Positions 7,981 through 30,609 of a DNA stretch of 64,000 nucleotides are shown here, piece by piece; positions within the stretch are counted from its first letter, which is position 1, and the number at the start of each line of letters is the position of its first letter. The position numbers and the translations under genes were made by a program. Source of the stretch: Bradyrhizobiaceae bacterium (GTDB lineage: Bacteria > Pseudomonadota > Alphaproteobacteria > Rhizobiales > Aestuariivirgaceae); the NCBI GenBank assembly GCA_947461195.1, contig CANHIU010000003.1:1131-65130 (forward strand). Reading direction: 5' to 3'. The notes below the pieces were generated by a model. It saw nothing but the letters and a program-made list of their open reading frames with translations, had not been told where the DNA came from and did no database searches.

Positions 7981-9153
7981 TCAGATCCGTTCCGCCAGGC
8001 GCGCAATGCGCCTGGAGGCTTCGGTAATCTCTTCAACGCCCACTGTGAGGGCCACGCGCAGGTGCCCGGAACCACCTGCACCGAAGCTCTCGCCCGGCAT
8101 GGTAACGACGTTTTCCTCCGCCAGGAGCCGGCGCGCGAAGTCCTCGCCCGAGAGGCCGGTCTTCCTGACGTCCACCATCACGAACATGCCGCCCTCGGGC
8201 ATGCGGGCCGAGACCGTCTTCGAGCCTTCGAGAGACTTCACCAGGGCGCGTGCGCGCTGTTCATAGGCGCGCTTCATCGCATCGATCTCGGGGAAGTGAT
8301 TGTCGAGCGCGAAGGCTGCCGCATCCTCGATGAAGGGTTGCGAGCCGAACAGCATTGTTTCGGTCACCGGAATGCAACGGTTGCAGAACTCCGCGGATGC
8401 GGCGATCCACCCGGCGCGCAGGCCCGGCAACGCATGTGACTTCGAGATCGACGACACGACGACTGTCCGCTTCTCGAGCTCGGGAATGTCGAAGGGCGAG
8501 GAAAATACGCTATTGCCATAGGTCATGGTGGCATAGACCTCGTCCGATATGATCCACAAGTCGTGCCTTTCGCAGATCTTGCCGATCTTCTCGATCTCCG
8601 ACCGCGTGAAGACGGCCCCCGTCGGGTTCGACGGCGTGTTCATCAGCAGCACGCGCGATTTCGGGGTGATGGCCTTCTCGAGGTCTGCCGCCTTCAGGTG
8701 GAAGCCATGGTCGGGGTCGACCCTGATGGGCGCCTTGATGCCGCCAGCCGCGGCGATGATCCCTTCATAGGTGGCATAATAGGGATCGGCGACCAGCACC
8801 TCGTCACCCTCGTCAACCACCGCCATCATGGCGGCGTAAAGCGCGCTCTGCGTGCCGGGAAGGTAGATGAACTGCGACTCGTCGATCGCGCGTCCCGTCT
8901 GCCGGGTGTAGAGGCACGCCAATGCGTGGCGCACACTGGCCTCGCCCCTGCCCTCGGCATAGCCCAGCCGGCCGGCATGCATCTGGCGGGTGGCTTCATC
9001 CAGAATGGCCGCGGGCGGTGGTGCATCCGGTTCCCCGATCGACAGGAAAATCATGGGCTCGCCCAGGGCGGCCCGGCGCCTGCCCTCGATATGGACAGCC
9101 CACTTGTCCGACCCGAGGCCGCCAAGCCTCGCCGTAACTTTCGCAAATTTCAT
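7981..9153 (-). CDS. Class I PLP aminotransferase, AruH (arginine:pyruvate transaminase)-like
   Basis: LSIGEPD, NTPSNPTG, DEVY, SISKSHALPGLRAGW (PLP Lys); N-terminus MKFAKVTARLGG..KWAVH resembles Pseudomonas AruH as recalled. Confidence 0.85.
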   Translation of the reverse strand: MKFAKVTARLGGLGSDKWAVHIEGRRRAALGEPMIFLSIGEPDAPPPAAILDEATRQMHAGRLGYAEGRGEASVRHALACLYTRQTGRAIDESQFIYLPGTQSALYAAMMAVVDEGDEVLVADPYYATYEGIIAAAGGIKAPIRVDPDHGFHLKAADLEKAITPKSRVLLMNTPSNPTGAVFTRSEIEKIGKICERHDLWIISDEVYATMTYGNSVFSSPFDIPELEKRTVVVSSISKSHALPGLRAGWIAASAEFCNRCIPVTETMLFGSQPFIEDAAAFALDNHFPEIDAMKRAYEQRARALVKSLEGSKTVSARMPEGGMFVMVDVRKTGLSGEDFARRLLAEENVVTMPGESFGAGGSGHLRVALTVGVEEITEASRRIARLAERI

Positions 9154-18549: not shown

Positions 18550-20127
18550 TCAACCCGACACCATTCGCGGTGTCATCTCGATCAGCGTGGGGCATTTGGC
18601 CTTCAGTGCCTCGCCTATGGCATCAGCCAGGGCTTTCAGGCTTCCAGGCTTCGCGGACTGGCAGCCGTAGGCCTTTGCCAGCATCTGGAAGTCCGGGTTC
18701 TTCAGGGTCACTGCATTCGGCTGGATACCCTTCATCACCATGTCGTCGCGGATCTGACCCAGAGCGTCGTTGTTCCACATCAGGATGACGAGGGGCAGTT
18801 CGTGCTCGGCGGCCGTGCCCAGTTCATTCAGCGTGTATTGCAGGCCATAATCCCCGATCATCACGGCGACGGGCTGCGTGCCAACCCCGAACTTCGCGCC
18901 GATGCCGGCTGGCAACGCGAAACCCAGCGTGCCGAAGCCCACGGGATGAATCCATGTGCGCGGTACCGAGACGGGAAAGATCTCGTTCGCCGCATAGGCA
19001 ATCTGCGTCATGTCGGAGCAGATCACGGTTTCCGCCGGAAGAGCCTCGCGGATCACGCCCAGGACCTTGGCCAGAATGGCGCGCAGTGCATCGGGTTCAC
19101 CGAGGTCGAAGCTCGCACGGGCCTCGCCGCCCCGCTTCTTGATGCCTTGGGCGATGGCCTCCAGCGATTCCCGTGCATCCCCCAGTATCGCGATGTCCGC
19201 ACTGTGCGGACGGCTCATCACGGATGGGTCAATGTCGATCCGGATGAGGTTCTTGTCGATCACAACATCGTCATTCCAGAAGTCGGTCTCTGAAAGTTCC
19301 GATCCGGCGCAGAGGATCGCGTCGCTCTCACCGAACAACTGCCACACGCCCGCGCGCCCCATGACGTAGCCGAGGCAGAGCGGATGACCGGATGGAACGG
19401 CGCCCTTGCCGGCGGTTGTGGTGAGGATCGGCGCCTTCAGCCTCTCCGCAATGGCAAGTGCTGCCGCACCCGCATGAAGCGCGCCGCCGCCAAGGATGAT
19501 GAGCGGCTTCTGCGCGGCGTTGAGCTTGGCAATGGCCTCCTCGATCTGGCTTCGCGAGGGAGAGGCAATCCGGGGAAGGCCGCGCGGCTCCCAACCGCTG
19601 CCTGCAGGTTCCTTCAGCAGATCCAGCGGAATCTCGAGATAGGCGGGCCGCGGGCGCTGGCTGGAGAAATGGGCGAAGGCCCGGGCTACCGCGTCGCGGA
19701 CGTCCTTCGGCGTATAGGCCCGCATGTGCAGGCCTGTGACTGCCGCCGCCGCCCCGCGCTGGTCGATCATCTCGTGAAGCCGTCCGCGCCCTTGTGATGA
19801 ATCCCTGATGTCGAGGGTGGACGAGATCACCAGCACATTGCTGGAATCTGACCACGCCTGGCCCATGGGTGTCAGGATGTTGGTGAGGCCCGGCCCGGTA
19901 ATGGTGAAGCAAACGCCGGGCTTGCCGGTGGCGCGGGCATAGCCGTCCGCCATGAACCCCGCGCCCTGTTCGTGCCGCACCAGAACGTGCCGGATCTTCG
20001 AACGTGGCAAAGCCCGGTACATCTCGACGTTATGCACCCCGGGAATGCCGAAAATCGTATCGACGCCATAGGCTTCGAGAAGGCCGACGAGTGCTTCGCC
20101 GGTCGAGAGTTCCGCACGCTTGGACAT
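18550..20127 (-). CDS. ThDP-dependent decarboxylase, AruI (5-guanidino-2-oxopentanoate decarboxylase)-like
   Basis: FGIPGVHN, RHEQGAGFMADGYAR, GFGTLGFALP, GDYG..NN ThDP motif; starts 2 nt after the dppF stop. Confidence 0.85.
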   Translation of the reverse strand: MSKRAELSTGEALVGLLEAYGVDTIFGIPGVHNVEMYRALPRSKIRHVLVRHEQGAGFMADGYARATGKPGVCFTITGPGLTNILTPMGQAWSDSSNVLVISSTLDIRDSSQGRGRLHEMIDQRGAAAAVTGLHMRAYTPKDVRDAVARAFAHFSSQRPRPAYLEIPLDLLKEPAGSGWEPRGLPRIASPSRSQIEEAIAKLNAAQKPLIILGGGALHAGAAALAIAERLKAPILTTTAGKGAVPSGHPLCLGYVMGRAGVWQLFGESDAILCAGSELSETDFWNDDVVIDKNLIRIDIDPSVMSRPHSADIAILGDARESLEAIAQGIKKRGGEARASFDLGEPDALRAILAKVLGVIREALPAETVICSDMTQIAYAANEIFPVSVPRTWIHPVGFGTLGFALPAGIGAKFGVGTQPVAVMIGDYGLQYTLNELGTAAEHELPLVILMWNNDALGQIRDDMVMKGIQPNAVTLKNPDFQMLAKAYGCQSAKPGSLKALADAIGEALKAKCPTLIEMTPRMVSG

Positions 20128-20129
20128 TT

Positions 20130-21116
20130 TCAGGCCGCTTTCGTTTCCGCTTCGGGAGGGTTTACCGCATGACATGCCACGAGGCTTCCCTCATGTTCAA
20201 GCAAGGCGGGGTTGATGGCCGGGCAGGGTGCGAAGCACGACGGGCAGCGCGGATGGAAGGTGCATCCCGTGGGCGGATTGATCGGCGATGGCATCTCGCC
20301 GCTGAGCACGATCCGGTCACGTTTGCGCGTGGGATCTGGCTGAGGCGTGGCCGAGAGCAAGGCCTTCGTATAAGGATGCTGTGGATTGCGGAATATGCTG
20401 TCACGCGGGCCCTGCTCCACTGCGCGGCCAAGATACATGACCATCACATCATCAGCGATATGGCGCACCACCGACAGGTCGTGACTGATGAAGAGATAGG
20501 CAAGGTTGTGCCTTTCCTGCAGCTCCGCCAGCAGGTTCAGAACCTGCGCCTGGATCGAAACGTCGAGCGCCGATACGGGCTCGTCAAGCACCAGGACGTC
20601 GGGATCCAGCATCAGGGCGCGCGCGATGGCGATGCGCTGGCGCTGCCCGCCGGAAAACATGTGGGGGTAGCGGTCGAAGTGTTCAGGCCTCAGGCCCACA
20701 CTCGCCATCATGGCGCGTGCCTTCTCGCTGCGCTCGCCCGCGCTCAGCCTGGTATTCACGAGCAGCGGTTCTTCCAGCGCATGACCGATCTTCTGGCGCG
20801 GATTGAGCGAGCCATACGGGTTCTGAAACACGATCTGCACCTTGGGCCTGAGTGCCTTCAGCGCTGCGGTGGATGCGCCCACGATGTCCTGTCCCGCGAT
20901 CACAAGCGATCCTGACGTCGGCGCCTCGATCATGGTGACGAGGCGGGCAAGGGTGGACTTGCCACAGCCCGATTCACCCACAACCGCCAGCGTCTTGCCG
21001 CGCTCGAGCGTGAAGCTCGCGCCGTCGAGTGCCTTGAGCGTGGCAGGCCTTGCGAAGACGCCGCGCCCGACGCTGTAGTAGCGGGTGAGGCCCGTGGCGG
21101 ATACGACGATGCTCAT
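20130..21116 (-). CDS. dppF: Dipeptide ABC transporter ATPase DppF
   Basis: GESGCGKS, FSGGQRQR, LDEP, HPYTKALL, FHPRC. Confidence 0.92.
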   Translation of the reverse strand: MSIVVSATGLTRYYSVGRGVFARPATLKALDGASFTLERGKTLAVVGESGCGKSTLARLVTMIEAPTSGSLVIAGQDIVGASTAALKALRPKVQIVFQNPYGSLNPRQKIGHALEEPLLVNTRLSAGERSEKARAMMASVGLRPEHFDRYPHMFSGGQRQRIAIARALMLDPDVLVLDEPVSALDVSIQAQVLNLLAELQERHNLAYLFISHDLSVVRHIADDVMVMYLGRAVEQGPRDSIFRNPQHPYTKALLSATPQPDPTRKRDRIVLSGEMPSPINPPTGCTFHPRCPSCFAPCPAINPALLEHEGSLVACHAVNPPEAETKAA

Positions 21117-22102
21117 GCTGCCTGTTCCTTCGCCTGCGGGTGGCCGCGGGGAACTCCGTCCCTCAAAGCGTAATGGCAAAGTGCACCGTCGATCCGCGGT
21201 GGCTTCGTGGTGCGGCAGCGTTCAGTGGAGAGCGGGCAGCGCGGGGAGAACAAGCAGCCCGAGGGCCTGTCGAACTGGCCGGGCACGACGCCGGGAATGG
21301 ACGGCAGCTGCCGCCCGGCGGCCCGCTCGGGAAGGGCAGAGAGCAGGGCGGCGGTATAGGGGTGGTGAGGATCACGGAAGAGGTCTTCTACCTTCTGCTC
21401 CTCCACCTTCTGTCCTGCGTACTGGACGGAGACTCTGTCTGCGGTCTCGGCGACGACCCCCATCGAGTGCGTGATGAGCACGAGGCCCATTCCTGTCTCG
21501 TCCTGCAGCTTGACCAGAAGTTCAAGAATCTGCGCCTGGATCGTCACATCGAGGGCAGTTGTCGGCTCATCTGCGATCAGCAGCTTGGGATTGCAGGCGA
21601 TCGCCATGGCGATCATCACGCGCTGGTTCATGCCGCCTGAAAGCTGGTGTGGAAATGCGGAGAGCCGCTGCTCCGGCGACGGGATGCCGACGAGCTGCAG
21701 AAGTTCGACGGCGCGCCTGCGCCTGTGCGCCTTGTTCATGTCGAGGTGGGCCTTCAAGGCTTCCATCAGCTGAAAGCCCACCGTGAAGCAGGGGTTGAGG
21801 CTCGACATCGGTTCCTGGAAGATCATCGCGATGTCCTTGCCGATGATCTTGCGCCGGTCGCGGGACGAAAGGTCCAGCAGGTTGCGGCCCGCGAAACTCA
21901 TCCTGTCCGCCGTCACCTTCGCAGTCCAGGGCAGCAGTCCCATGACAGCCAGCATGGATACGGACTTGCCCGATCCGGACTCCCCGACGATCGCCAGCAC
22001 TTCGCCCTTGTCCACGCTGAGCGACACGCCGTCAACCGCCCGGAAGAAGCCGGATGCCGTCCTGAACTCGACGGTGAGATTCTCGATTTCGAGCATCGCC
22101 AT
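21113..22102 (-). CDS. dppD: Dipeptide ABC transporter ATPase DppD
   Basis: [26 protein letters not shown]. Confidence 0.92.
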
Positions 22103-22107
22103 TGGGG

Positions 22108-23013
22108 TCAGCTTCTCCTCAGGCGCGGGTCGAGCGCGTCACGCAGACCATCGCCCATCAGGTTGATCGCGAGAACGGTGATGAGGATGGCAAGACCGGG
22201 CATCGTCACAACCCACCAGGCGCGCGTCACATATTCCCGAGAGTCCGCCAGCATGGTGCCCCACTCCGGTGTGGGCGGCTGTGCGCCCATGCCGAGAAAC
22301 CCGAGCGCCGCTGCATCAAGGATGGCGCTGGAAAAGGACAGTGCAGCCTGCACGATCAGCGGTGCCATGCAGTTGGGCAGTATCGTGCGGAACATCATCC
22401 TGAGCCGGCCCACCCCTGAGACCCTTGCAGCCGTAACGTAGTCCTTGCTCATCTCGCTCATGACGGCGGCCCGCGTCAGCCGCACATAGTGCGGCTGCTG
22501 GATGAGGGCGATGGCGATCATGGCGTTGGTGAGGCTGGGTCCGAGCATTGCCACCAGCACCAGTGCCAGCAACAGGCTCGGGAAGGACATCAGCACATCC
22601 ATGACCCGCATCACCGCATTGTCGAAGGCGCCGCGGAGAAAACCCGTCAGTAGTCCGAGCGTCACCCCGAGCAGCAGCGAGATCGTCACCACGATGACGC
22701 CAATGAACAACGAGTACCTGCTGCCGTAGATCAGCCGCGAAAGAATGTCGCGGCCGACCGGGTCGGTGCCGAGAATGAAGCGCCAGTCTCCTCCCTCCTG
22801 CCAGACCGGAGGTGTCAGGAAGGAATCGCGGTACTGTTCATGCGGTGCGTGCGGGGCCACCACATCCGCAAAGACAGCGAGCAGCACAACGAAGAGGAAG
22901 ACCGCAAGCCCGAGCACCGCCCCCCGGTTCTCACTGAAATGGCGCCAGAACTCGGCCAGCAGTGCCGGCCTGCCGGTCCCCGGCGAACTGGTTGTCATGT
23001 CGATCTCGCTCAT
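22108..23013 (-). CDS. dppC: Dipeptide ABC permease DppC
   Basis: LGTDPVGRDILSRL, EAA-loop AARVSG, PPTPEWG, GDGLRDALDP. Confidence 0.93.
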   Translation of the reverse strand: MSEIDMTTSSPGTGRPALLAEFWRHFSENRGAVLGLAVFLFVVLLAVFADVVAPHAPHEQYRDSFLTPPVWQEGGDWRFILGTDPVGRDILSRLIYGSRYSLFIGVIVVTISLLLGVTLGLLTGFLRGAFDNAVMRVMDVLMSFPSLLLALVLVAMLGPSLTNAMIAIALIQQPHYVRLTRAAVMSEMSKDYVTAARVSGVGRLRMMFRTILPNCMAPLIVQAALSFSSAILDAAALGFLGMGAQPPTPEWGTMLADSREYVTRAWWVVTMPGLAILITVLAINLMGDGLRDALDPRLRRS

Positions 23014-23017
23014 GCGC

Positions 23018-24028
23018 TCACGTCCTGTGCCGGATGCGTGGATCGGTGAGGCCGTAGAGCAGGTCCACGATCAGGTTCACCAGCATGACCACGGCGGCGA
23101 TCAGCAACAGGCCTCCCTGAACCACCGGATAGTCGCGGCGCGCGATTGAATCGATCATCCACTTTCCAATCCCCGGCCAGGAGAAGATCGTCTCGGTCAG
23201 GATGGCGCCGGCCAGCAGCACGCCGACCTGCAGCCCAATGGTGGTGATGACCGGGATCATGGCGTTGCGCAGGGCGTGGAGCCCCACCACCCGGAAGGGG
23301 GAAAGCCCCTTGGCGCGTGCCGTTCGCACATAGTCCTCGCCCAGCACCTCGAGCATGGCCGAGCGCGTTTGGCGCGCAATGACGGCCAGTGGAATGGTCC
23401 CGAGAACCACCGTCGGCAGGATCAGGTGCCGGACGGCTGAGGTGAAAGCCCCTTTCTGGCCGGAGATGAGACTGTCGATCAGCATGAAGCCCGTGACGGG
23501 CTTGAAGAAATAGACAAGGCCAATTCGCCCGGACACGGGCGTCCACTGCAGCGTCACCGAAAACAGGATGATGAGCAGCAGGCCCCACCAGAAGATCGGC
23601 ATCGAATAGCCGACCAGCGCGGTGCCCATGACCGTCTGGTCATAAACGCTGCCGCGCCGCACGGCGGCGATGACGCCGGCTGGAATGCCCAGCACGACCG
23701 CGAAAAGCATGGCCGCGAGCGAAAGCTCGACCGTCGCTGGAAACAGGGTGAGGAATTCCTGCAGCACCGGCATCTTGGTCTTCAGCGATACGCCGAGATC
23801 GCCATGAAGCAGGTCCCAGACATAGTGCAAGTACTGCTCCCAGACCGGCCGGTCGAAGCCGAATTGCTTCAGGAGTTCGGCATGGCGTTCAGGTGTCAGG
23901 GAGCGTTCGCCGGCCATCAGCACCACGGGATCCCCCGGCAGCAAGCGGATGAAGCCGAACGATACCAGCGTGATGCCGATCAGTGTCGGCACCAACAACA
24001 GGGCGCGCCAAAACAGGAACCGGATCAT
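23018..24028 (-). CDS. dppB: Dipeptide ABC permease DppB
   Basis: LLPGDP, FPATVELS, TARAKGL, RDYPVVQG. Confidence 0.93.
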   Translation of the reverse strand: MIRFLFWRALLLVPTLIGITLVSFGFIRLLPGDPVVLMAGERSLTPERHAELLKQFGFDRPVWEQYLHYVWDLLHGDLGVSLKTKMPVLQEFLTLFPATVELSLAAMLFAVVLGIPAGVIAAVRRGSVYDQTVMGTALVGYSMPIFWWGLLLIILFSVTLQWTPVSGRIGLVYFFKPVTGFMLIDSLISGQKGAFTSAVRHLILPTVVLGTIPLAVIARQTRSAMLEVLGEDYVRTARAKGLSPFRVVGLHALRNAMIPVITTIGLQVGVLLAGAILTETIFSWPGIGKWMIDSIARRDYPVVQGGLLLIAAVVMLVNLIVDLLYGLTDPRIRHRT

Positions 24029-24037
24029 GAGGAATGC

Positions 24038-24122
24038 GAGCGGCCCCTAGCGCAACGGGCCCTCAAGTGCCTTCGCACCTGAGGGCGAAAAGTTGCGCCA
24101 GCCATTAAATGCGGGGCCGCTC
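24038..24122 (-). other. Nested four-stem RNA hairpin in the dppA-dppB spacer
   Basis: P1 24038-47/24113-22 (10 bp), P2 24050-56/24092-98, P3 24059-65/24080-86, P4 24067-70/24075-78; all perfect pairs. Confidence 0.7.
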
Positions 24123-24133
24123 ATCATCTCTTG

Positions 24134-25732
24134 TTATTCGGCGATGTCCACGCCATCGAAGCGATGCGACCCCAGAGGGTCCATCTTGTAATTCATGACC
24201 TTCTTGCTCATCGGCATGAAGACCACGGAATGGGCGATCGTGGCCCAGGGCGCCTGCTCCTTGAAGACCTTCTGGGCTTCCATGTACACGGGCGTGCGCT
24301 CTTCGTTCGTCGGCAGCACCTTGGCCTTCTGGATCAGGTCCTCGAAGGGCTGGTGGCACCACTGGGCGCGGTTCGAGCCGCCGACCGCCGAGCAGCCCAG
24401 CAGAACGGCGAGGAAGTTGTCCGGATCGCCATTGTCGCCGGTCCAGCCGAGAAGAAGCGCGCCGTCACGGTCCTTGGCCTTCGAGCGCTCGAGATATTCG
24501 CCCCACTCATAGGATACGATCTCCGCCTCGACGCCGACCTTGGCGAAGTCGGCCTGGATGAGTTCGGCCATCTTGCGCGCATCCGGATTGTAGGGACGCT
24601 GCACGGGCATGGCCCAGATCTTCATCTTGAGGCCCGAAACGCCGGCATCAGCAAGCATCTTCTTGGCGGCTTCCGGATCATAGGGATCGTCCACCGTGTC
24701 GTTATTGTAGGACCACATGGTTGGCGGGATCGGGTTCTTCGCTGCCGTGCCCGCGCCCTGGAAAACGGCATCGAGAATGGCCTGCTTGTTGATCGCCATA
24801 TTGAGCGCCTTGCGCACCTCTACCTTGTCGAAGGGCGCCACCAGCGTGTTGTAGGCAAGATAACCGACGTTCAGGCCTTCCTGCTCCATGACGGTGAGGT
24901 TCGGGTCAGCCTTGAGGCTGGCGGTCTCCGCCGGGGGCGGATAGGGGGCCACATGGCACTCGCCTGCCTTCAGCTTCTGCATGCGCACCGATGCGTCTGT
25001 GGTGATGGCGAAGATCAGATCGTCGATCGGCTGCTTGCCGCCCCAGAAATCCGGGTGCGCGGCATAGCGGATCACGGCGTCCTTCTGGTAGTCGACGAAC
25101 AGGAAGGGTCCGGTGCCGATGGGCTGCTGGTTGATCATCTCCTTCTTGCCGTCAGCCTCGAGCTTGGCGGCATATTCCGCAGAGAGAATCGAAGCGAAAT
25201 CCATCGCCATGTTGGCCAGGAACGGGGCTTCGGGGCGGTTCAGCTTGAAGGTGATGGTATGATCGTCAACCTTCACGATGTCCTTGAGCAGGGCCGGCAT
25301 GTCCATGCCGTCGAAGTACTCCCAGGCGATCCCCGCCGAGTACTGGTTCCATGGATGGTCCTTCTTCAGCTGCCGCATGAAGGAGAAGATCACGTCATCG
25401 GCGTTGAACTCACGCGTGGGCGTGAAAAAGGACGTGGTATGGAATTTCACGCCCTTGCGCAGCTTGAAGGTGATTTCGGTGCCGTCGGCCGAAACCTCCC
25501 AGCTTTCCGCAAGGCCCGGAATGATGTTCGTGGTCCCCCGGTCAAACTCGACAAGCCGGTTGTAGATCGGCCGTGAAGAGGCGTTGAACGTCGTCCCGGC
25601 AGTGTAAGGCGCCGGATCGAAGCCCTCGGGCGAGCCTTCCGAGCAATAGACGAGCGTCTTTGCGTTTGCCGCACCTGCCACCAGCATGCTCGAGGCCAGC
25701 AGCGCCGCCCCAAGAAGTTTCCTCATTGTCAT
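24134..25732 (-). CDS. dppA: Dipeptide-binding periplasmic protein DppA
   Basis: KTLVYCSEGSPEGFDP, PIGTGPF, GWTGDNGDPDNF; ATG 25732 with GGAG SD. Confidence 0.93.
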   Translation of the reverse strand: MTMRKLLGAALLASSMLVAGAANAKTLVYCSEGSPEGFDPAPYTAGTTFNASSRPIYNRLVEFDRGTTNIIPGLAESWEVSADGTEITFKLRKGVKFHTTSFFTPTREFNADDVIFSFMRQLKKDHPWNQYSAGIAWEYFDGMDMPALLKDIVKVDDHTITFKLNRPEAPFLANMAMDFASILSAEYAAKLEADGKKEMINQQPIGTGPFLFVDYQKDAVIRYAAHPDFWGGKQPIDDLIFAITTDASVRMQKLKAGECHVAPYPPPAETASLKADPNLTVMEQEGLNVGYLAYNTLVAPFDKVEVRKALNMAINKQAILDAVFQGAGTAAKNPIPPTMWSYNNDTVDDPYDPEAAKKMLADAGVSGLKMKIWAMPVQRPYNPDARKMAELIQADFAKVGVEAEIVSYEWGEYLERSKAKDRDGALLLGWTGDNGDPDNFLAVLLGCSAVGGSNRAQWCHQPFEDLIQKAKVLPTNEERTPVYMEAQKVFKEQAPWATIAHSVVFMPMSKKVMNYKMDPLGSHRFDGVDIAE

Positions 25733-25878
25733 GACTTTCTCCGTATTGTTGCGACCCCACCCCTGGGGCATGTGAACTAAAGCACGTTTCTCGGTTCGAT
25801 CATAACGCGCAGTTCTGCTCTTCGGAGGTTGCCGCACGAATGACGAGAAACGCCAGTCAGTCTCCGCGAAGGGCGGCG

Positions 25879-26841
25879 CTATCCGCGCCTCCGCGCCACG
25901 TCCTCCGCCATTGAGCACAGGATCTCGAACATCATGGTGACACCCGCATGTGCGGTGATGCCGGAGGAGTCGAATGGCGGCGAAACCTCCACCACGTCTG
26001 CGCCGACAATGTTAAGGCCGCGCAACTCGCGAAGCAACTGCTGGGCCTGGAATGTTGTGAAGCCACCCACTTCCGGCGTGCCCGTTCCTGGGGCATAGAC
26101 GGGGTCAAGCATGTCGATGTCGAAGCTCACATAGGTGGGACCATCGCCCACGATTTTCCGGGCTTCTGCCATGATGGCCTGCGGGCCCTTCTCCATCGCC
26201 TCCTCGATGCGCACGAGACGCACGCCCATCTTCTCGCCCCACTCGAAGTCGTCGAGGTCGTACATGGAGCCGCGAAGCCCGATCTGTATCGTCCGCTTGG
26301 GGTCGAGCACGCCCTCCTCGATCGCGCGGCGGAAAGGTGTTCCGTGGGTGTATTTGAAGCCGCCGAAATAGCCGTCGTAGAGATCGGTATGGGCGTCGAA
26401 GTGGATCATGCCCACCGGCTTCTTCTCGCCCACCGCGCGCAGCACGGGCAGCGAGCAGAGGTGGTCGCCGCCCGCTGACAGCGGGCGGATTCCCATGCCC
26501 ACGAGCTTCTTGAAATAGGTCTCCACCCGCTTCAGCGCGTCATCGACATTGGCCGGGTTCACCGGGCAATCGCCAAGGTCGGCCACATTGGCGAGATCGT
26601 AGGGCACGGTCCTCATCGTCTGGTGCATGGGCCTGATCATCGCCGACATGTCACGCATCTGGCGCGGGGCATGGCGCGGGCCTGGGCGGTTCGTTGTGCC
26701 GCCATCCCACGGAATGCCGACGAGCCCGATGTCGATACCTTTTGCCTCATCGAGTGGCACGTGCGGGAGCCGCATGAAGGTGGCGATGCCGCCGAAGCGT
26801 GGCGTCACCAGCCCCGACACCGGTTTGTTGAAAGGAGCCAT
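25879..26841 (-). CDS. speB: Ureohydrolase (agmatinase / guanidinobutyrase GbuA-like)
   Basis: PRFGGIATFMRLP, GGDH, DAHTD, HGTPF, SFDIDxLDP, VEVSPPFD; exact substrate uncertain. Confidence 0.85.
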   Translation of the reverse strand: MAPFNKPVSGLVTPRFGGIATFMRLPHVPLDEAKGIDIGLVGIPWDGGTTNRPGPRHAPRQMRDMSAMIRPMHQTMRTVPYDLANVADLGDCPVNPANVDDALKRVETYFKKLVGMGIRPLSAGGDHLCSLPVLRAVGEKKPVGMIHFDAHTDLYDGYFGGFKYTHGTPFRRAIEEGVLDPKRTIQIGLRGSMYDLDDFEWGEKMGVRLVRIEEAMEKGPQAIMAEARKIVGDGPTYVSFDIDMLDPVYAPGTGTPEVGGFTTFQAQQLLRELRGLNIVGADVVEVSPPFDSSGITAHAGVTMMFEILCSMAEDVARRRG

Positions 26842-26849
26842 GATCTACC

Positions 26850-28031
26850 TCAGTTCTTGATAACGAGCTTGCGCGGCGTTTTGCACAGGCACTCGACGCC
26901 GTTTGATGTGATGAGAATTGTTTCAGACAGCTCGAGACCGCCGTCATCAAGCCACAGGGCCGGCATGAAATGCAGCGTCATGTTGGGTTCGAGCACCGTT
27001 GTGTCGCCGCGGCGGATCGACAGTGTACGCTCGCCCCAGTCCGGCGGATAAGAAAGTCCGATCGAATAGCCAGCGCGCGAATCCTTGCTGAAACCGCGCT
27101 TTTGCAGCGTGCCGAAGAAGGCCTCCGCCACTTCGCCGCAGGTAATGCCCGGCCGGCATTTCGCGAGGCCTGCCTCGGTTGCCTCCAGAACCGCACTCTC
27201 GGCATCGAGGAATTTCTGCGGTGGCTTGCCGAGATAGACCGTGCGCGAGAGTGGCGCATGATAACGGCGGTAGCAGCCACCGAGTTCGAAGAAGGTGCCC
27301 TCGCCGTTGTTGAAGGGCCGGTCGTCCCAGGTAAGGTGGGGCGCGGTGGCATCGACCCCTGACGGCAGCATCGGCACGAAGGCGCAGTAATCGCCCCAGT
27401 GCCCGCCCGCCCCAAGGAACGCCTGTTTCTGGATTTCGGCGACCAGCACATTCTTGGGAAGGCCGGGTTCCACCAGTTCGATGACCTTGGCGTGCATGGC
27501 GTCCACGATGGCGGCGGCGCGGCGGATGAACTCCACCTCATGCTCGCTCTTTACCATGCGCTGCCAGTTGACGAGGCCCGTCGAGTCCGAAAACCGCGCC
27601 TCGCGCAAATGGGTGCGGAGCGTGTCGTTCGCAGCCGCCGAGAACCAGTAGTTGTCCATCTCGACGCCAATCCGCGCCGCCTGCCAGCCGCGCGCCGCGA
27701 TCACGCCAGAGAGCTGCTCCATCGGATGCTTCAGCGGGTTCTGCACGTAAGTGTCGTCATAGCCCACGATGTTGTCGTGGTGCATGAAGACCGTGCGTTT
27801 GGCGCCCTGCGCATCCATGCCGCGACCCCACCAGAGCGGTTCTCCCTCGAGTCCCAGCAGCACGGCCTGGTGCACATAAAAGGACCAGCCGTCATATCCG
27901 GTGAGCCAGGACATGTTCGAGGGATCCGACACGATGATGAGATCCAGCCCCCTGGCCGCCATGGCCTTGCGCGTGAGGGCGATGCGGCGGTGGTATTCCG
28001 CGAGGGGGAAGTGGAGGGTCACATTCGTCAT
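26850..28031 (-). CDS. M24-family hydrolase, ectoine hydrolase DoeA/EutD-like
   Basis: SDPSNMSWLTGYDGWSFYVHQ, APHLTWDD, SRTVYLG, GLSYPPDWGERT. Confidence 0.85.
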   Translation of the reverse strand: MTNVTLHFPLAEYHRRIALTRKAMAARGLDLIIVSDPSNMSWLTGYDGWSFYVHQAVLLGLEGEPLWWGRGMDAQGAKRTVFMHHDNIVGYDDTYVQNPLKHPMEQLSGVIAARGWQAARIGVEMDNYWFSAAANDTLRTHLREARFSDSTGLVNWQRMVKSEHEVEFIRRAAAIVDAMHAKVIELVEPGLPKNVLVAEIQKQAFLGAGGHWGDYCAFVPMLPSGVDATAPHLTWDDRPFNNGEGTFFELGGCYRRYHAPLSRTVYLGKPPQKFLDAESAVLEATEAGLAKCRPGITCGEVAEAFFGTLQKRGFSKDSRAGYSIGLSYPPDWGERTLSIRRGDTTVLEPNMTLHFMPALWLDDGGLELSETILITSNGVECLCKTPRKLVIKN

Positions 28032-28038
28032 GGGCCAC

Positions 28039-28090
28039 ATGATGGAACGGCGGGATGATCTTGCGCAAGGGCCAGCGCCCCGCTTATCTG
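28039..28090. promoter_or_regulatory. Putative back-to-back sigma70 promoters sharing the palindromic -35 CTTGCGCAAG
   Basis: TTGCGC-N18-TATCTG on + and TTGCGC-N18-CATCAT on -; both ATGs lie 5-7 nt beyond the -10 and neither has an SD. Confidence 0.4.
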
Positions 28091-28095
28091 GTGCC

Positions 28096-29190
28096 ATGAG
28101 CGAGGACTTCGATATCATCGTCATCGGCGCCGGCATCGCGGGCGCCTCCGTCGCGGCCCATCTCGCGGAGACCCAGCGTGTGGCAATCTGCGAAATGGAG
28201 GAGCGGCCAGGCTACCACACCACGGGCCGGTCCGCCGCTGCTTATGAACCCAATTATGGCCCGCCCCCGATCCTGGCCTTGACCCGCGCCGCCAGGCGTC
28301 ATTTCGAGGCGGGCGGATACCTCACCCCACGTGAGACGCTGTTCTTCATGCCCGATGGCCAAGGGCAGGCCTTCGAAAAACTCATGGCTGTCCAGCAGGG
28401 AATGGTGGAGATCTCTCCCGCTGAGGCGAGGGCCAAGTTCCCCCTGCTGAAGGAGGGCTATGCCCGGCGCGCCGTGCTGGACCCCGGCACGGCCGACATC
28501 GACGTCGATCTCCTGCACCAGTTCTATCTCCGGCTGTTCCGCCAGCGGGGCGGCGAACTCCATTGTGACCGCGCCGTCACCGCGCTGGAGAGGAACGGCC
28601 AGTGGACAGTCCGCACGGGCAACGAGATAATCCGCGCGCAGATCATCGTCGATGCAGCCGGGGCCTGGGGTGACAAGGTCGCGGCGCTGGCGGGCCGGGC
28701 GCCAATCGGGCTGCAGCCCAAGCGGCGGTCCATCGCCGTGGTGCCGGGCCCCGAGGGCGCGGACATCATGCGTTGGCCGATGGTCGGCGATGTGGGTGAG
28801 ACATGGTATTGCAAGCCGCAATCGGGAAAACTCCTTGTCTCGCCCGCCGATGCCACCCCCGTCGATCCGCATGATGCCTATGCTGACGATATGACTCTGG
28901 CCGAAGGCATCGAACGCTTCGAGCAGGCCATCGATTGCCCGGTAACGCGGGTTGATCGCACATGGGGCGGCCTCCGCTCCTTTGCGCCGGACGGCAACCC
29001 CGTCGTTGGCTTTGATTCAAGTGATGACGGCTTCTTCTGGCTCATCGGCCAGGGCGGCTACGGCATCCAGTCTTCACCGGCCCTCTCGCGCCTCGCGGCG
29101 GCACTGGTGCTGGGCGAAGAGCCGCCTGCTGACATCATGGACGAGGGGCTCGTGCTGGCGGAGATTTCCCCCCGGCGGTTCGCAGACTGA
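28096..29190 (+). CDS. FAD-dependent D-amino-acid dehydrogenase, DauA (D-arginine dehydrogenase)-like
   Basis: GAGIAGAS, GYHTTGRSAA, GLQPKRRS, WGGLRSF, GQGGYGIQ match DauA as recalled. Confidence 0.85.
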   Translation: MSEDFDIIVIGAGIAGASVAAHLAETQRVAICEMEERPGYHTTGRSAAAYEPNYGPPPILALTRAARRHFEAGGYLTPRETLFFMPDGQGQAFEKLMAVQQGMVEISPAEARAKFPLLKEGYARRAVLDPGTADIDVDLLHQFYLRLFRQRGGELHCDRAVTALERNGQWTVRTGNEIIRAQIIVDAAGAWGDKVAALAGRAPIGLQPKRRSIAVVPGPEGADIMRWPMVGDVGETWYCKPQSGKLLVSPADATPVDPHDAYADDMTLAEGIERFEQAIDCPVTRVDRTWGGLRSFAPDGNPVVGFDSSDDGFFWLIGQGGYGIQSSPALSRLAAALVLGEEPPADIMDEGLVLAEISPRRFAD

Positions 29191-29209
29191 ACGGCGCTGG
29201 CCTGAGGCC

Positions 29210-29806
29210 TCATGCTTCCAGGACGATCACTTCGATCCCGGTCGGATTGAAGTTGTTGCAGGGGTTCAGAACCTGCGGGCAGTTGGAGATGACGGCAAGA
29301 ACATCCATTTCGGCGCGGATTTCCACCTGATCACCCGGTTTAGAGGAGCCGAGTGCGATCGCCGCGTCACCCGCCGCCCCCACCGGAACGGTCATGAACC
29401 AGTTGACGTTTGGCACAATGTCCCTCCAGCCGAGGCCGTGAGGCTTGAGCGCCGCAAGGAAATTCTCGCGGCATCCCTTGTTTGGTACGCCATACAGCAT
29501 CCGGTTTGATGGTTCGGAGCAACAACCGCCGATCGTGTCATGACCGCCGAAACTGTCGCTGGTAATGGTGAAGAGCGCCTGCGCCCGGTCAGAATAGAGC
29601 ACGTCGCCGGTGGTGAGCAGGATATGGCCTGCCTTTTTGAGGGTGTTGGGCGCGTGGTAGCGCTCCTCGGGATCATGCGCATTGTAGCAAAGGAAATCGA
29701 CGGCCTGCTGGCCATGACTGTCGACAATGCGGAGCGTCTGGCCCTTGTTGATCACGCGGCTCCAGGGCGCGCGTGCGGGGATGCTCTCGCGGTGAATTTC
29801 CTGCAT
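29210..29806 (-). CDS. DUF1989 / urea-carboxylase-associated protein (CgdB-like)
   Basis: GQQAVD, HDTIGGCCS, CRENF, NVNWFMTVPV, SNCPQ..NPCN. Confidence 0.85.
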   Translation of the reverse strand: MQEIHRESIPARAPWSRVINKGQTLRIVDSHGQQAVDFLCYNAHDPEERYHAPNTLKKAGHILLTTGDVLYSDRAQALFTITSDSFGGHDTIGGCCSEPSNRMLYGVPNKGCRENFLAALKPHGLGWRDIVPNVNWFMTVPVGAAGDAAIALGSSKPGDQVEIRAEMDVLAVISNCPQVLNPCNNFNPTGIEVIVLEA

Positions 29807-30609
29807 CAGGCGAGTTGCCTCTCGAACAGTTGGCCCCATTGCGGCATCACGTCGGTGATGCCTGCCAGGCGGAGGGCATGCCAGGCCATGGCATGGTTCG
29901 AGGAGGTGATGGGAACGCCCGTCTCCGCCTCGATGGCGCGCGCTGCCTCGGCCAGTCTCACAGAGGTGCAGGACACGAAGACGGCATCGACCGCCGCATG
30001 GGAGAGGATGGTGTCTACCCCACGCTTCACCGATGCAGGTGTGATCGCCGCCACCACGCCGTCGTCCTGCTCGTTGAATGAACCGAAGATGGGAACATCG
30101 AAGCCACGCGCCCGGATATAGTCCGCCACGATGCGGTTGACATCCGCCCGGTAGGGGGTGAGCACTCCGATGCGCCTGGCCTTGAGCGCCCGGAAGGCGG
30201 CGAAGGCGCCAGTGATGGGTGTCGTGCATTTGGCATCAGGCCTGACCGACCGGATGCGCTCGAAGACTTTCTCCTCGCCGATCGCCATCGAGGCGGAGGT
30301 GCAGCCATAGGCCACGACGTCGAGCGGGCTTCCCGGCAGGATGACGTCGGTTGCAGCCGCGATCCTTGGCTCCATGGCGCGCAGCGTTTCGGGCGTGATC
30401 TGGGCATCGTTCAGGATGCGGCTTTCATAAAGGGCCACACCCGGCAGCCCCGCCATGATTGCGCGCCATTCGTGCTCGATGGTGAAGTCGGTGGCCAGCA
30501 CCAGCAGGCCGAGGCGGGCCCGGCTGGCGATTCCGTCATCGGTTTCAAAGGGCAGGTGCTCGATCAGGACCATGCCGTCATCTGGCCTTCCTGGCGTCAT
30601 GTCATTCAT
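29806..30609 (-). CDS. Asp/Glu racemase / maleate isomerase family (EutA-like)
   Basis: LGLLVLATDFTIE, YGCTS and SCTS catalytic cysteines, VLTPY, TSSNHA; overlaps the DUF1989 start. Confidence 0.85.
   Translation of the reverse strand: MNDMTPGRPDDGMVLIEHLPFETDDGIASRARLGLLVLATDFTIEHEWRAIMAGLPGVALYESRILNDAQITPETLRAMEPRIAAATDVILPGSPLDVVAYGCTSASMAIGEEKVFERIRSVRPDAKCTTPITGAFAAFRALKARRIGVLTPYRADVNRIVADYIRARGFDVPIFGSFNEQDDGVVAAITPASVKRGVDTILSHAAVDAVFVSCTSVRLAEAARAIEAETGVPITSSNHAMAWHALRLAGITDVMPQWGQLFERQLA

Follow-up and report, generated by a model that had tools for sequence, protein, structure and literature searches.

A recurrent gene cluster in Aestuariivirgaceae and a candidate D-form route for the catabolism of guanidino amino acids

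The window considered here is a stretch of 64,000 nucleotides (nt) of contig CANHIU010000003.1 (positions 1,131 to 65,130, assembly GCA_947461195.1) from a Bradyrhizobiaceae bacterium assigned to the Aestuariivirgaceae. Between window positions 18550 and 30609 lies a compact cluster of genes for a dipeptide-type importer and for enzymes related to those of arginine and ectoine breakdown, which is the subject of this report. An original prediction, made from the letters of the window, had placed seven families in this interval and read them as an assembled arginine/guanidino pathway, perhaps for a modified or cyclic guanidino compound rather than plain arginine. Pfam and NCBIfam profile searches on the window proteins recover all seven there, encoded by the following genes.

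18550..20175, minus strand: thiamine diphosphate (ThDP)-dependent 2-oxoacid decarboxylase, AruI subfamily, with TPP_enzyme N, M and C domains
20130..21116, minus strand: dppF, ATPase of an ATP-binding cassette (ABC) importer (ABC_tran and oligo_HPY domains), its start overlapping the dppD stop as ATGA
21113..22102, minus strand: dppD, ABC ATPase (ABC_tran and oligo_HPY)
22108..23013, minus strand: dppC, permease (BPD_transp_1 and OppC_N)
23018..24028, minus strand: dppB, permease (BPD_transp_1 and BPD_transp_1_N)
24134..25732, minus strand: dppA, DppA-type periplasmic dipeptide-binding protein, matching DppA of Escherichia coli
25879..26841, minus strand: guanidino-acid ureohydrolase of the GpuA/GbuA clade (Arginase family, 302 bits)
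26850..28031, minus strand: DoeA/EutD-type M24 ring hydrolase (M24 and Creatinase_N), which leads the operon and stops 8 nt short of the ureohydrolase gene
28096..29190, plus strand: DauA-like D-amino-acid dehydrogenase dependent on flavin adenine dinucleotide (DAO family), divergent from the operon
29210..29806, minus strand: solo DUF1989 protein (DUF1989, 205 bits), translationally coupled to the racemase gene
29806..30609, minus strand: two-cysteine enzyme of the Asp/Glu-racemase family, a putative amino-acid racemase independent of pyridoxal 5'-phosphate (PLP), with Amdase and Asp_Glu_race domains

Most of these genes are tightly packed. The minus-strand string running from 28031 to 18550 reads doeA-like, ureohydrolase, dppA, dppB, dppC, dppD, dppF and ThDP gene; behind the 8 nt separating its first two members, the gaps are about 150 nt before dppA, 105 nt before dppB, 4 nt between dppB and dppC and 5 nt before dppD. 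After the dppD/dppF overlap, 2 nt separate dppF from the ThDP gene, whose true start is likely Met17 at 20127, 2 nt past the dppF stop. The dauA-like gene diverges from the doeA-like gene across 64 nt, and the racemase and DUF1989 genes, joined by the stop/start overlap TGATG, converge on it from the other side. Beyond the racemase gene follow housekeeping lnt, a gene for an XRE-type helix-turn-helix (HTH) protein and metK. A promoter and terminator scan of the stretch gave nothing exceeding shuffled controls. The source genome (3.78 Mb, 96% complete) belongs to an organism whose window genes have Aestuariivirga species (Hyphomicrobiales) as nearest named relatives, and the stretch occurs in DNA runs of metagenomes sampled from lakes, drinking water and aquaculture.

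Evidence for a functional link comes from recurrence in rearranged orders. The window proteins were mapped onto 80 racemase-anchored loci (66-92% identity), of which almost every one belongs to Aestuariivirgaceae or a neighbouring lineage, and genes were counted in the 52 loci having at least 9.5 kb downstream of the racemase gene. The ureohydrolase is found in 37 of the 52, the DauA-like gene in 29, dppA in 23 (a count limited by the 10-kb flank), the DUF1989 gene in 22 and the DoeA-like gene in 16, these last two mostly in Aestuariivirga. Gene order is variable, the ureohydrolase-M24-DAO segment being inverted with respect to the window in most relatives. In thirteen loci the racemase and ureohydrolase genes stay linked in the absence of lnt-metK synteny. 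The A. litoralis group has an isolated racemase/DUF1989 pair next to lnt, the other cluster genes lying elsewhere yet grouped. Two loci with the racemase elsewhere (L102 and L103) show the ureohydrolase gene divergent from the DauA-like gene, with dppABCDF and the ThDP gene next in line; A. litoralis itself (L104 and L105) has the DauA-like gene divergent from a DoeA-like-ureohydrolase pair and, apart from these, a dppABCDF-ThDP string. Orthologs of the ThDP enzyme, 60-84% identical in relatives, are encoded either directly after dppF, wherever Dpp is present, or directly after the DauA-like gene, as in three loci (L011, L012 and L132) holding the trio without Dpp. This double placement therefore points to Dpp as a cassette inserted into a DauA-like-ThDP unit. 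Some lineages carry optional extras, namely an M19 dipeptidase and a Macro-domain protein at the M24 position, a half-size EamA transporter, a LysR regulator, a PhyH dioxygenase or an Amidohydro_3 enzyme.

A wider sample of 151 genomes of the order includes 20 with a DauA-like ortholog. Inspection of eight of these revealed two divergent DauA-like/ureohydrolase pairs (L125 and L128) and one DauA-like/DoeA-like pair (L127, 68% identity), all three sitting amid unrelated housekeeping genes in other families of the order. The recurrent core consists of the ureohydrolase, the DauA-like dehydrogenase and the ThDP enzyme, with the racemase and Dpp as frequent companions; the DoeA-like and DUF1989 genes are accessory, since only 16 and 22 of the 52 loci hold them. 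Co-occurrence of the seven families, proposed earlier as a check, is consequently real for the core and unequal for the rest, and the AruH-like transaminase and sarcosine oxidase once associated with the cluster fall outside it. Operon packing, together with the recurrence of ureohydrolase, DauA-like, Dpp and ThDP genes in rearranged orders, bears out the view of a functionally linked catabolic cluster.

Among the core proteins, the DauA-like dehydrogenase is clearly related to DauA. Its top match in the PDB is DauA (3NYC, 5e-81, 276 bits), the next PDB match standing at 2.6e-12. The equivalents of DauA Arg222, Tyr249, Arg305, Tyr53 and Gly332, a set presumably including the carboxylate- and amine-binding residues, are invariant in 33 cluster-linked orthologs. 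A gene for a PhyH-family dioxygenase lies beside the DauA-like gene in several relatives (L030:9255-10112, with the same family in L028, L032, L043 and L068); another PhyH gene (L127:13713-14510) is found 2 kb from the DauA-like/DoeA-like pair seen in a different family of the order. PhyH is the Pfam family that includes ectoine hydroxylase.

The ureohydrolase keeps the metal-binding motifs GGDH, DAHTD and DIDMLDP. It scores 428 bits against the 3-guanidinopropionase of Pseudomonas aeruginosa (GpuA, 3NIP) and 331 bits against the guanidinobutyrase (GbuA, 3NIO), and its loop after DAHxD has the GpuA length. Tyr157 in GpuA and Met161 in GbuA are residues that we provisionally take to be the determinants of chain length. 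Homologs in Ruegeria pomeroyi, in Gemmobacter and on Rhizobium plasmids stand in different contexts and give no functional lead. The third core protein, the ThDP enzyme, reaches 578.5 bits against the model NF005712 (‘5-guanidino-2-oxopentanoate decarboxylase’, cut-off 500).

The racemase-family protein has maleate isomerases as PDB matches, and its Cys103 and Cys214, in GCTS and SCTS motifs, are invariant in 79 orthologs and nine outgroup proteins. It had been described as EutA-like. The family assignment stands, but the protein is not an EutA ortholog: it scores 209 bits against TIGR02990 (EutA), under the 318-bit cut-off, and lies nearer to racemases encoded beside DadA. These nearest homologs, 47-54% identical by MAFFT and 48-57% by tblastn, have DadA, RidA and amino-acid ABC importers as neighbours in Cupriavidus, Azospirillum and Neorhizobium. 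Identity is 41-45% to M24-paired relatives, 40% to relatives paired with a hydrolase of L-2-aminothiazoline-4-carboxylate (L-ATC) and 39-40% to true EutA. A recurring plasmid set in Aliiroseovarius, Roseovarius and Aminobacter (L092, L099 and L100) joins a two-cysteine racemase to an M24 ‘Xaa-Pro peptidase’, an amidohydrolase (an M20 peptidase in Aminobacter) and either a diaminopropionate ammonia-lyase or a cystathionine beta-lyase; this set resembles a pathway of the ectoine type directed at another cyclic amidine, possibly one with a C3 skeleton.

The importer genes dppABCDF make up a five-gene ABC system with a DppA-type binding protein, for which a dipeptide ligand is predicted. The dppA product matches E. 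coli DppA over its full length (676 bits) and keeps the motifs GWTGDNGDPDN and AMPVQRPYNP, which are of a type that we take to bind dipeptide termini; against the equivalog model NF043070 it scores 726 bits, under the cut-off of 1005. A second DppA, 69% identical, is encoded on contig C6. In relatives, two alternative dppABC cassettes occupy the same operon position (window 22108-25732 for comparison): one, in L013, L018, L024, L102 and L103, is 56-69% identical to the window genes, and the other, in L031, L032 and L071, is 85-91% identical. In both types dppD and dppF (the latter where sampled) are 77-89% identical. Because dppABC diverge between the cassettes while dppD and dppF stay similar, a swap of the substrate-facing half of the transporter is suggested.

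The gene leading the operon encodes a protein that looks like a true member of the DoeA/EutD family in every sequence comparison, with ectoine hydrolysis as its predicted activity. With 625 bits it passes the 613-bit cut-off of TIGR02993 (DoeA), and its match to the Halomonas DoeA structure 6TWK reaches 500 bits. Five DoeA proteins encoded in canonical ehu/ueh-eut-doeB clusters show 59-75% identity among themselves and 56-64% to the window protein, which shares with them 165 invariant positions, only nine changes being group-specific and those mostly conservative. A creatinase identity was considered and rejected, the score against creatinase being 59 bits. The 96%-complete genome has no DoeB/EutE, its top match to TIGR02994 reaching 58 bits (cut-off 402.7) on another contig. 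The DoeA/DoeB pair is held necessary for ectoine breakdown, and an adjacent DoeB/EutE defines such clusters (PMC8739950); a phylogenomic study of ectoine genes makes no mention of an arginase-linked EutD (PMC13188858). In five loci of Taklimakanibacter and Parvibaculaceae (L060, L065, L066, L071 and L076; for example L060:12324-13983), genes for an M19 membrane dipeptidase and a Macro-domain protein resembling O-acetyl-ADP-ribose deacetylase stand at the DoeA-like position.

Family memberships, catalytic residues, operon packing and recurrent linkage form the basis on which a route can be proposed. In our judgement, chances are about even that the cluster breaks down a cationic amino acid by way of its D-form; this substrate, which we infer from the enzymes, would most likely be a guanidino compound, either arginine or a homologue with a shorter chain. 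Such a route would combine the dadAX scheme, with a racemase upstream of a D-amino-acid dehydrogenase, and the DauA-AruI-KauB-GbuA steps of Pseudomonas. The Dpp-type importer would supply this amino acid, either free or as a dipeptide. The two-cysteine racemase would convert the L-form into the D-form, presumably in that direction, and the DauA-like flavoenzyme, by its family and its conserved catalytic residues, is predicted to oxidise the D-form to the 2-imino/2-oxo acid. The AruI-subfamily ThDP enzyme would turn the oxo acid into an aldehyde, which an unlinked aldehyde dehydrogenase would oxidise to the omega-guanidino acid. From its place in the GpuA/GbuA clade, the ureohydrolase is expected to release urea and either beta-alanine or 4-aminobutyrate (GABA). 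The DoeA-type hydrolase and the solo DUF1989 protein are, on this reading, lineage-specific additions, probably feeding in or tidying related cyclic amidine or imine compounds.

Several observations weigh against this route. One step has no linked gene: domain searches find neither an aldehyde dehydrogenase nor a dedicated regulator in the cluster, as the original prediction had pointed out, and none of the 8 or 9 aldehyde dehydrogenase genes elsewhere in the genome is assignable to KauB; nor does any aldehyde dehydrogenase recur in the related loci. The stretch is present in DNA runs only and in none of the RNA runs from the same lake samples. The compared loci come mostly from one bacterial family, and part of the co-location may be inherited synteny. 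Plain arginine is poorly matched by four facts, namely the GpuA-like ureohydrolase, the loss of Glu87, the leading DoeA ortholog and the ordinary DppA. By sequence, the ureohydrolase is nearer to 3-guanidinopropionase than to guanidinobutyrase, a misfit with the C5 skeleton of arginine. The P. aeruginosa enzyme is the sole dedicated guanidinopropionase known (PMC10833137). In the dehydrogenase, the equivalent of DauA Glu87 is Thr or Ser in 33 of 33 orthologs, and 30 of the 33 keep a Glu at the lid position equivalent to Thr50. We take Glu87 of DauA to bind the guanidinium group or another cation. DppA resembles an ordinary dipeptide binder, yet many versions of the cluster have no peptidase. 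Finally, the route leaves unexplained why a DoeA ortholog leads the operon and what the DUF1989 protein does.

The identity of the ThDP enzyme also counts among these difficulties. The AruI-like label given to it earlier agrees with the NF005712 score but is weak, the protein being about 41% identical to the gene named AruI in a P. aeruginosa record, and the name AruI or 5-guanidino-2-oxopentanoate decarboxylase being borne as well by genes in unrelated, non-guanidino contexts. Three plasmid loci of Shinella and Caballeronia (L106, L107 and L108) encode ThDP enzymes named ‘5-guanidino-2-oxopentanoate decarboxylase’ beside RraA/aldolase genes, beside a flavin oxidoreductase and an aminotransferase, or beside an aldehyde dehydrogenase. 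Since these bearers of the name have no guanidino-related neighbours, it appears over-propagated.

The same facts can be read as a mosaic of independent neighbouring modules that form no single pathway: a dipeptide permease of general use, hydrolases for ectoine (an orphan) and for guanidino acids, a D-amino-acid dehydrogenase and a separate racemase/DUF1989 pair. That DppA is DppA-like throughout, that the racemase/DUF1989 pair can stand alone beside lnt in the A. litoralis group, that the DoeA-like and DUF1989 genes each occur in fewer than half of the loci and that most loci share one family and a conserved lnt-HTH-metK synteny all suit such an assemblage. It is nonetheless unlikely. Gaps of 2-8 nt and ATGA overlaps join the doeA-like gene to the ureohydrolase gene and dppF to the ThDP gene, the dppABCDF-ThDP and DauA-like-ThDP adjacencies survive inversions and relocations, 13 loci have racemase and ureohydrolase together where the lnt synteny is absent, and DauA-like/ureohydrolase pairs recur in other families of the order.

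A further rival keeps the single pathway and changes the substrate. The GpuA-like ureohydrolase, the loss of Glu87 and the leading DoeA ortholog would all fit a C4 (2,4-diaminobutyrate) skeleton, and a C4 route is therefore retained, although we consider it distinctly unlikely. Its substrate would be either 2-amino-4-guanidinobutyrate or a ring compound, namely ectoine or a cyclic amidine or guanidine resembling it. Oxidation of the D-form would fall to the racemase together with the DauA-like enzyme, the ThDP enzyme would decarboxylate a ring-opened or linear 4-amidino/guanidino-2-oxobutanoate, and, after oxidation of the aldehyde, the GpuA-like enzyme would yield beta-alanine and urea (or acetamide), with DoeA as a parallel hydrolytic entry. 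By its sequence the M24 enzyme resembles a genuine DoeA, its gene stands immediately upstream of the ureohydrolase gene, which thus holds the place of doeB in canonical clusters, and the divergent DauA-like/DoeA-like pair recurs in another family of the order. The ureohydrolase has the only dedicated 3-guanidinopropionase as nearest relative and a loop of the same type. Cyclic amidine carboxylates are suggested as substrates by the racemase family, which includes EutA and a racemase encoded next to L-ATC hydrolase, and the side-chain pocket of the DauA-like enzyme is remodelled by the loss of Glu87 and the gain of a lid-loop Glu. Against this stand the many versions of the core cluster without DoeA, the lack of a linked ectoine transporter, DoeB, EutB or EutC and of EutE anywhere in the genome, and the freshwater habitat, where abundant ectoine is not expected. 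The similarity of about 60% to GpuA does not settle the chain length, and neither a pathway of this kind nor a natural cyclic guanidino analogue of ectoine is known to us. In its fullest form, this would be an undescribed oxidative route for C4-skeleton amidino/guanidino amino acids ending in beta-alanine, with racemase and dehydrogenase opening or oxidising the D-form, with the solo DUF1989 protein as an imine or guanidine deiminase and with DoeA plus the ureohydrolase replacing DoeB, a scheme that we regard as doubtful. Equally doubtful is the corollary that DUF1989 would sit where Rid does in dad loci, or would partner ureohydrolases.

Salvage of dipeptides containing D-amino acids is very improbable: Dpp would import them, a dipeptidase (M24 here, M19 in Taklimakanibacter and Parvibaculaceae) would cleave them, the dehydrogenase and racemase would dispose of the D-residue and the guanidino enzymes would handle the arginine partner, a scheme favoured by the DppA-type importer inside the operon, by the M19 ‘renal dipeptidase’ gene that takes the place of the M24 gene in five loci (L-Xaa-D-Xaa dipeptides are the preferred substrates of bacterial M19 enzymes) and by the Amidohydro_3 gene after the DauA-like gene in some Aestuariivirga loci, but the M24 protein resembles DoeA by sequence rather than a peptidase, several complete clusters have no peptidase and we know of no natural source of Arg-containing D-dipeptides.

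With D-form catabolism of a guanidino amino acid as the preferred reading, the nearest known system is the DauA/AruH-AruI-KauB-GbuA route of P. aeruginosa, which shares the trio of a DauA-family, an AruI-subfamily and a GbuA/GpuA-clade enzyme. Here the genes form a cluster whose operon also encodes a Dpp importer, the L-form would enter through a putative PLP-independent racemase in place of AruH or DauB, and kauB, dauB and dauR have no linked counterpart. The ureohydrolase resembles GpuA more than GbuA, Glu87 of DauA is not kept and the ThDP enzyme has only a distant counterpart (about 41% identity) in the gene annotated AruI. Four of the five Pseudomonas steps had been counted as represented. 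Three of them (DauA, AruI and GbuA/GpuA) form the minimal recurrent unit, and AruH is not in the cluster. The transaminase at 7981-9153, taken for a nearby AruH-like part of the pathway, is a class I/II aminotransferase of generic type, and unrelated genes for osmoregulated periplasmic glucan (OPG) synthesis, AcnX, Aas and a fasciclin protein lie between it and the cluster; the AruH link is rejected on both grounds. Its top NCBIfam model is the guanitoxin cyclodehydratase GntC, at 256 bits far under the cut-off of 415, and despite this match the enzyme is read as generic. The sarcosine oxidase, likewise drawn into the pathway, lies 15 kb away with no sign of linkage.

Two other families of loci show partial likeness. 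In the dadAX/dadRAYX alanine loci, a racemase feeds a membrane-linked D-amino-acid dehydrogenase, and the nearest homologs of the window racemase are encoded beside DadA and RidA. The racemase here, however, belongs to the two-cysteine Asp/Glu family and not to the PLP-dependent DadX type, the dehydrogenase is of the DauA and not the DadA type, and a DUF1989 gene instead of Rid holds the coupled position. The ectoine clusters (doeAB-X-CD and ehu/ueh-eutABCDE-asnC-ssd-atf) have in common with the window an M24 enzyme of the DoeA/EutD family, here with a distant EutA relative nearby, whereas the present cluster has no EutB, EutC, EnuR, AsnC, Ssd, Atf or ectoine transporter, and a ureohydrolase holds the position after doeA. 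The missing DoeB and an EutA score under the cut-off place this cluster, on gene content, outside the ectoine family. Literature searches on DUF1989 and ectoine, on guanidinopropionase and D-arginine dehydrogenase, and on AruI, DauA and 2-ketoarginine returned no description of this gene combination.

If the preferred reading is correct, a clustered, importer-linked 2-ketoarginine route would exist in Alphaproteobacteria common in lakes and drinking water. A widespread branch of the two-cysteine racemase family would gain a first function, as PLP-independent racemases for basic amino acids, solo DUF1989 proteins would gain a testable setting, and the occurrence of DoeA orthologs without DoeB would find an explanation. 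The cluster also counsels caution over the automatic names ‘agmatinase’, ‘5-guanidino-2-oxopentanoate decarboxylase’ and ‘ectoine hydrolase’.

The DUF1989 protein invites comparison with the carboxyguanidine deiminase CgdAB, in which two DUF1989 proteins are encoded beside guanidine carboxylase. Besides the domain, the likeness extends to the top-scoring models, which are the urea-amidolyase-associated protein pair: 246.6 bits against TIGR03424 (cut-off 284.7) and 173 bits against TIGR03425 (cut-off 206). Here, by contrast, the protein is a single subunit, coupled to the racemase and adjacent to a ureohydrolase, and homologs of 73% identity occur in quite different settings. Domain searches found no carboxylase in the window, and no genome-wide search for one was made. 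Being a single DUF1989 subunit that scores under both cut-offs, the protein does not make the cluster a CgdAB system as judged by these models. Solo DUF1989 proteins are abundant and, to our knowledge, have no known role outside CgdAB and trimethylamine N-oxide (TMAO) demethylase.

The remaining DUF1989 genes of the genome lie on contigs C8, C10 and C60. In the commonest Aestuariivirga arrangement, the DUF1989 gene of the cluster abuts the ureohydrolase gene, and a second, paralogous pair of divergent ureohydrolase and solo DUF1989 genes is found on C8 (C8:40728-42311; locus L122:8726-10315), flanked by genes for an MscS channel and glutathione reductase. Its products are 45% (ureohydrolase) and 33% (DUF1989) identical to the cluster proteins. 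In no fewer than five genera of the family the two genes of this second pair adjoin or lie at most about 2.5 kb apart, and genomes of at least one genus carry them on different contigs. A working partnership between the ureohydrolase and a solo DUF1989 protein is a lead, these kin not being independent of one another. Homologs of the cluster protein, 70-92% identical, are common in Alphaproteobacteria in varied contexts, for instance as an isolated copy in Anderseniella or, in Siccirubricoccus, within a DUF1989 pair near Rieske oxygenases. In Siccirubricoccus phaeus (L008:8843-11184), a DUF1989 protein 73% identical to that of the window belongs to a tandem DUF1989 pair surrounded by two Rieske oxygenase genes, a flavin reductase gene and an amino-acid ABC importer.

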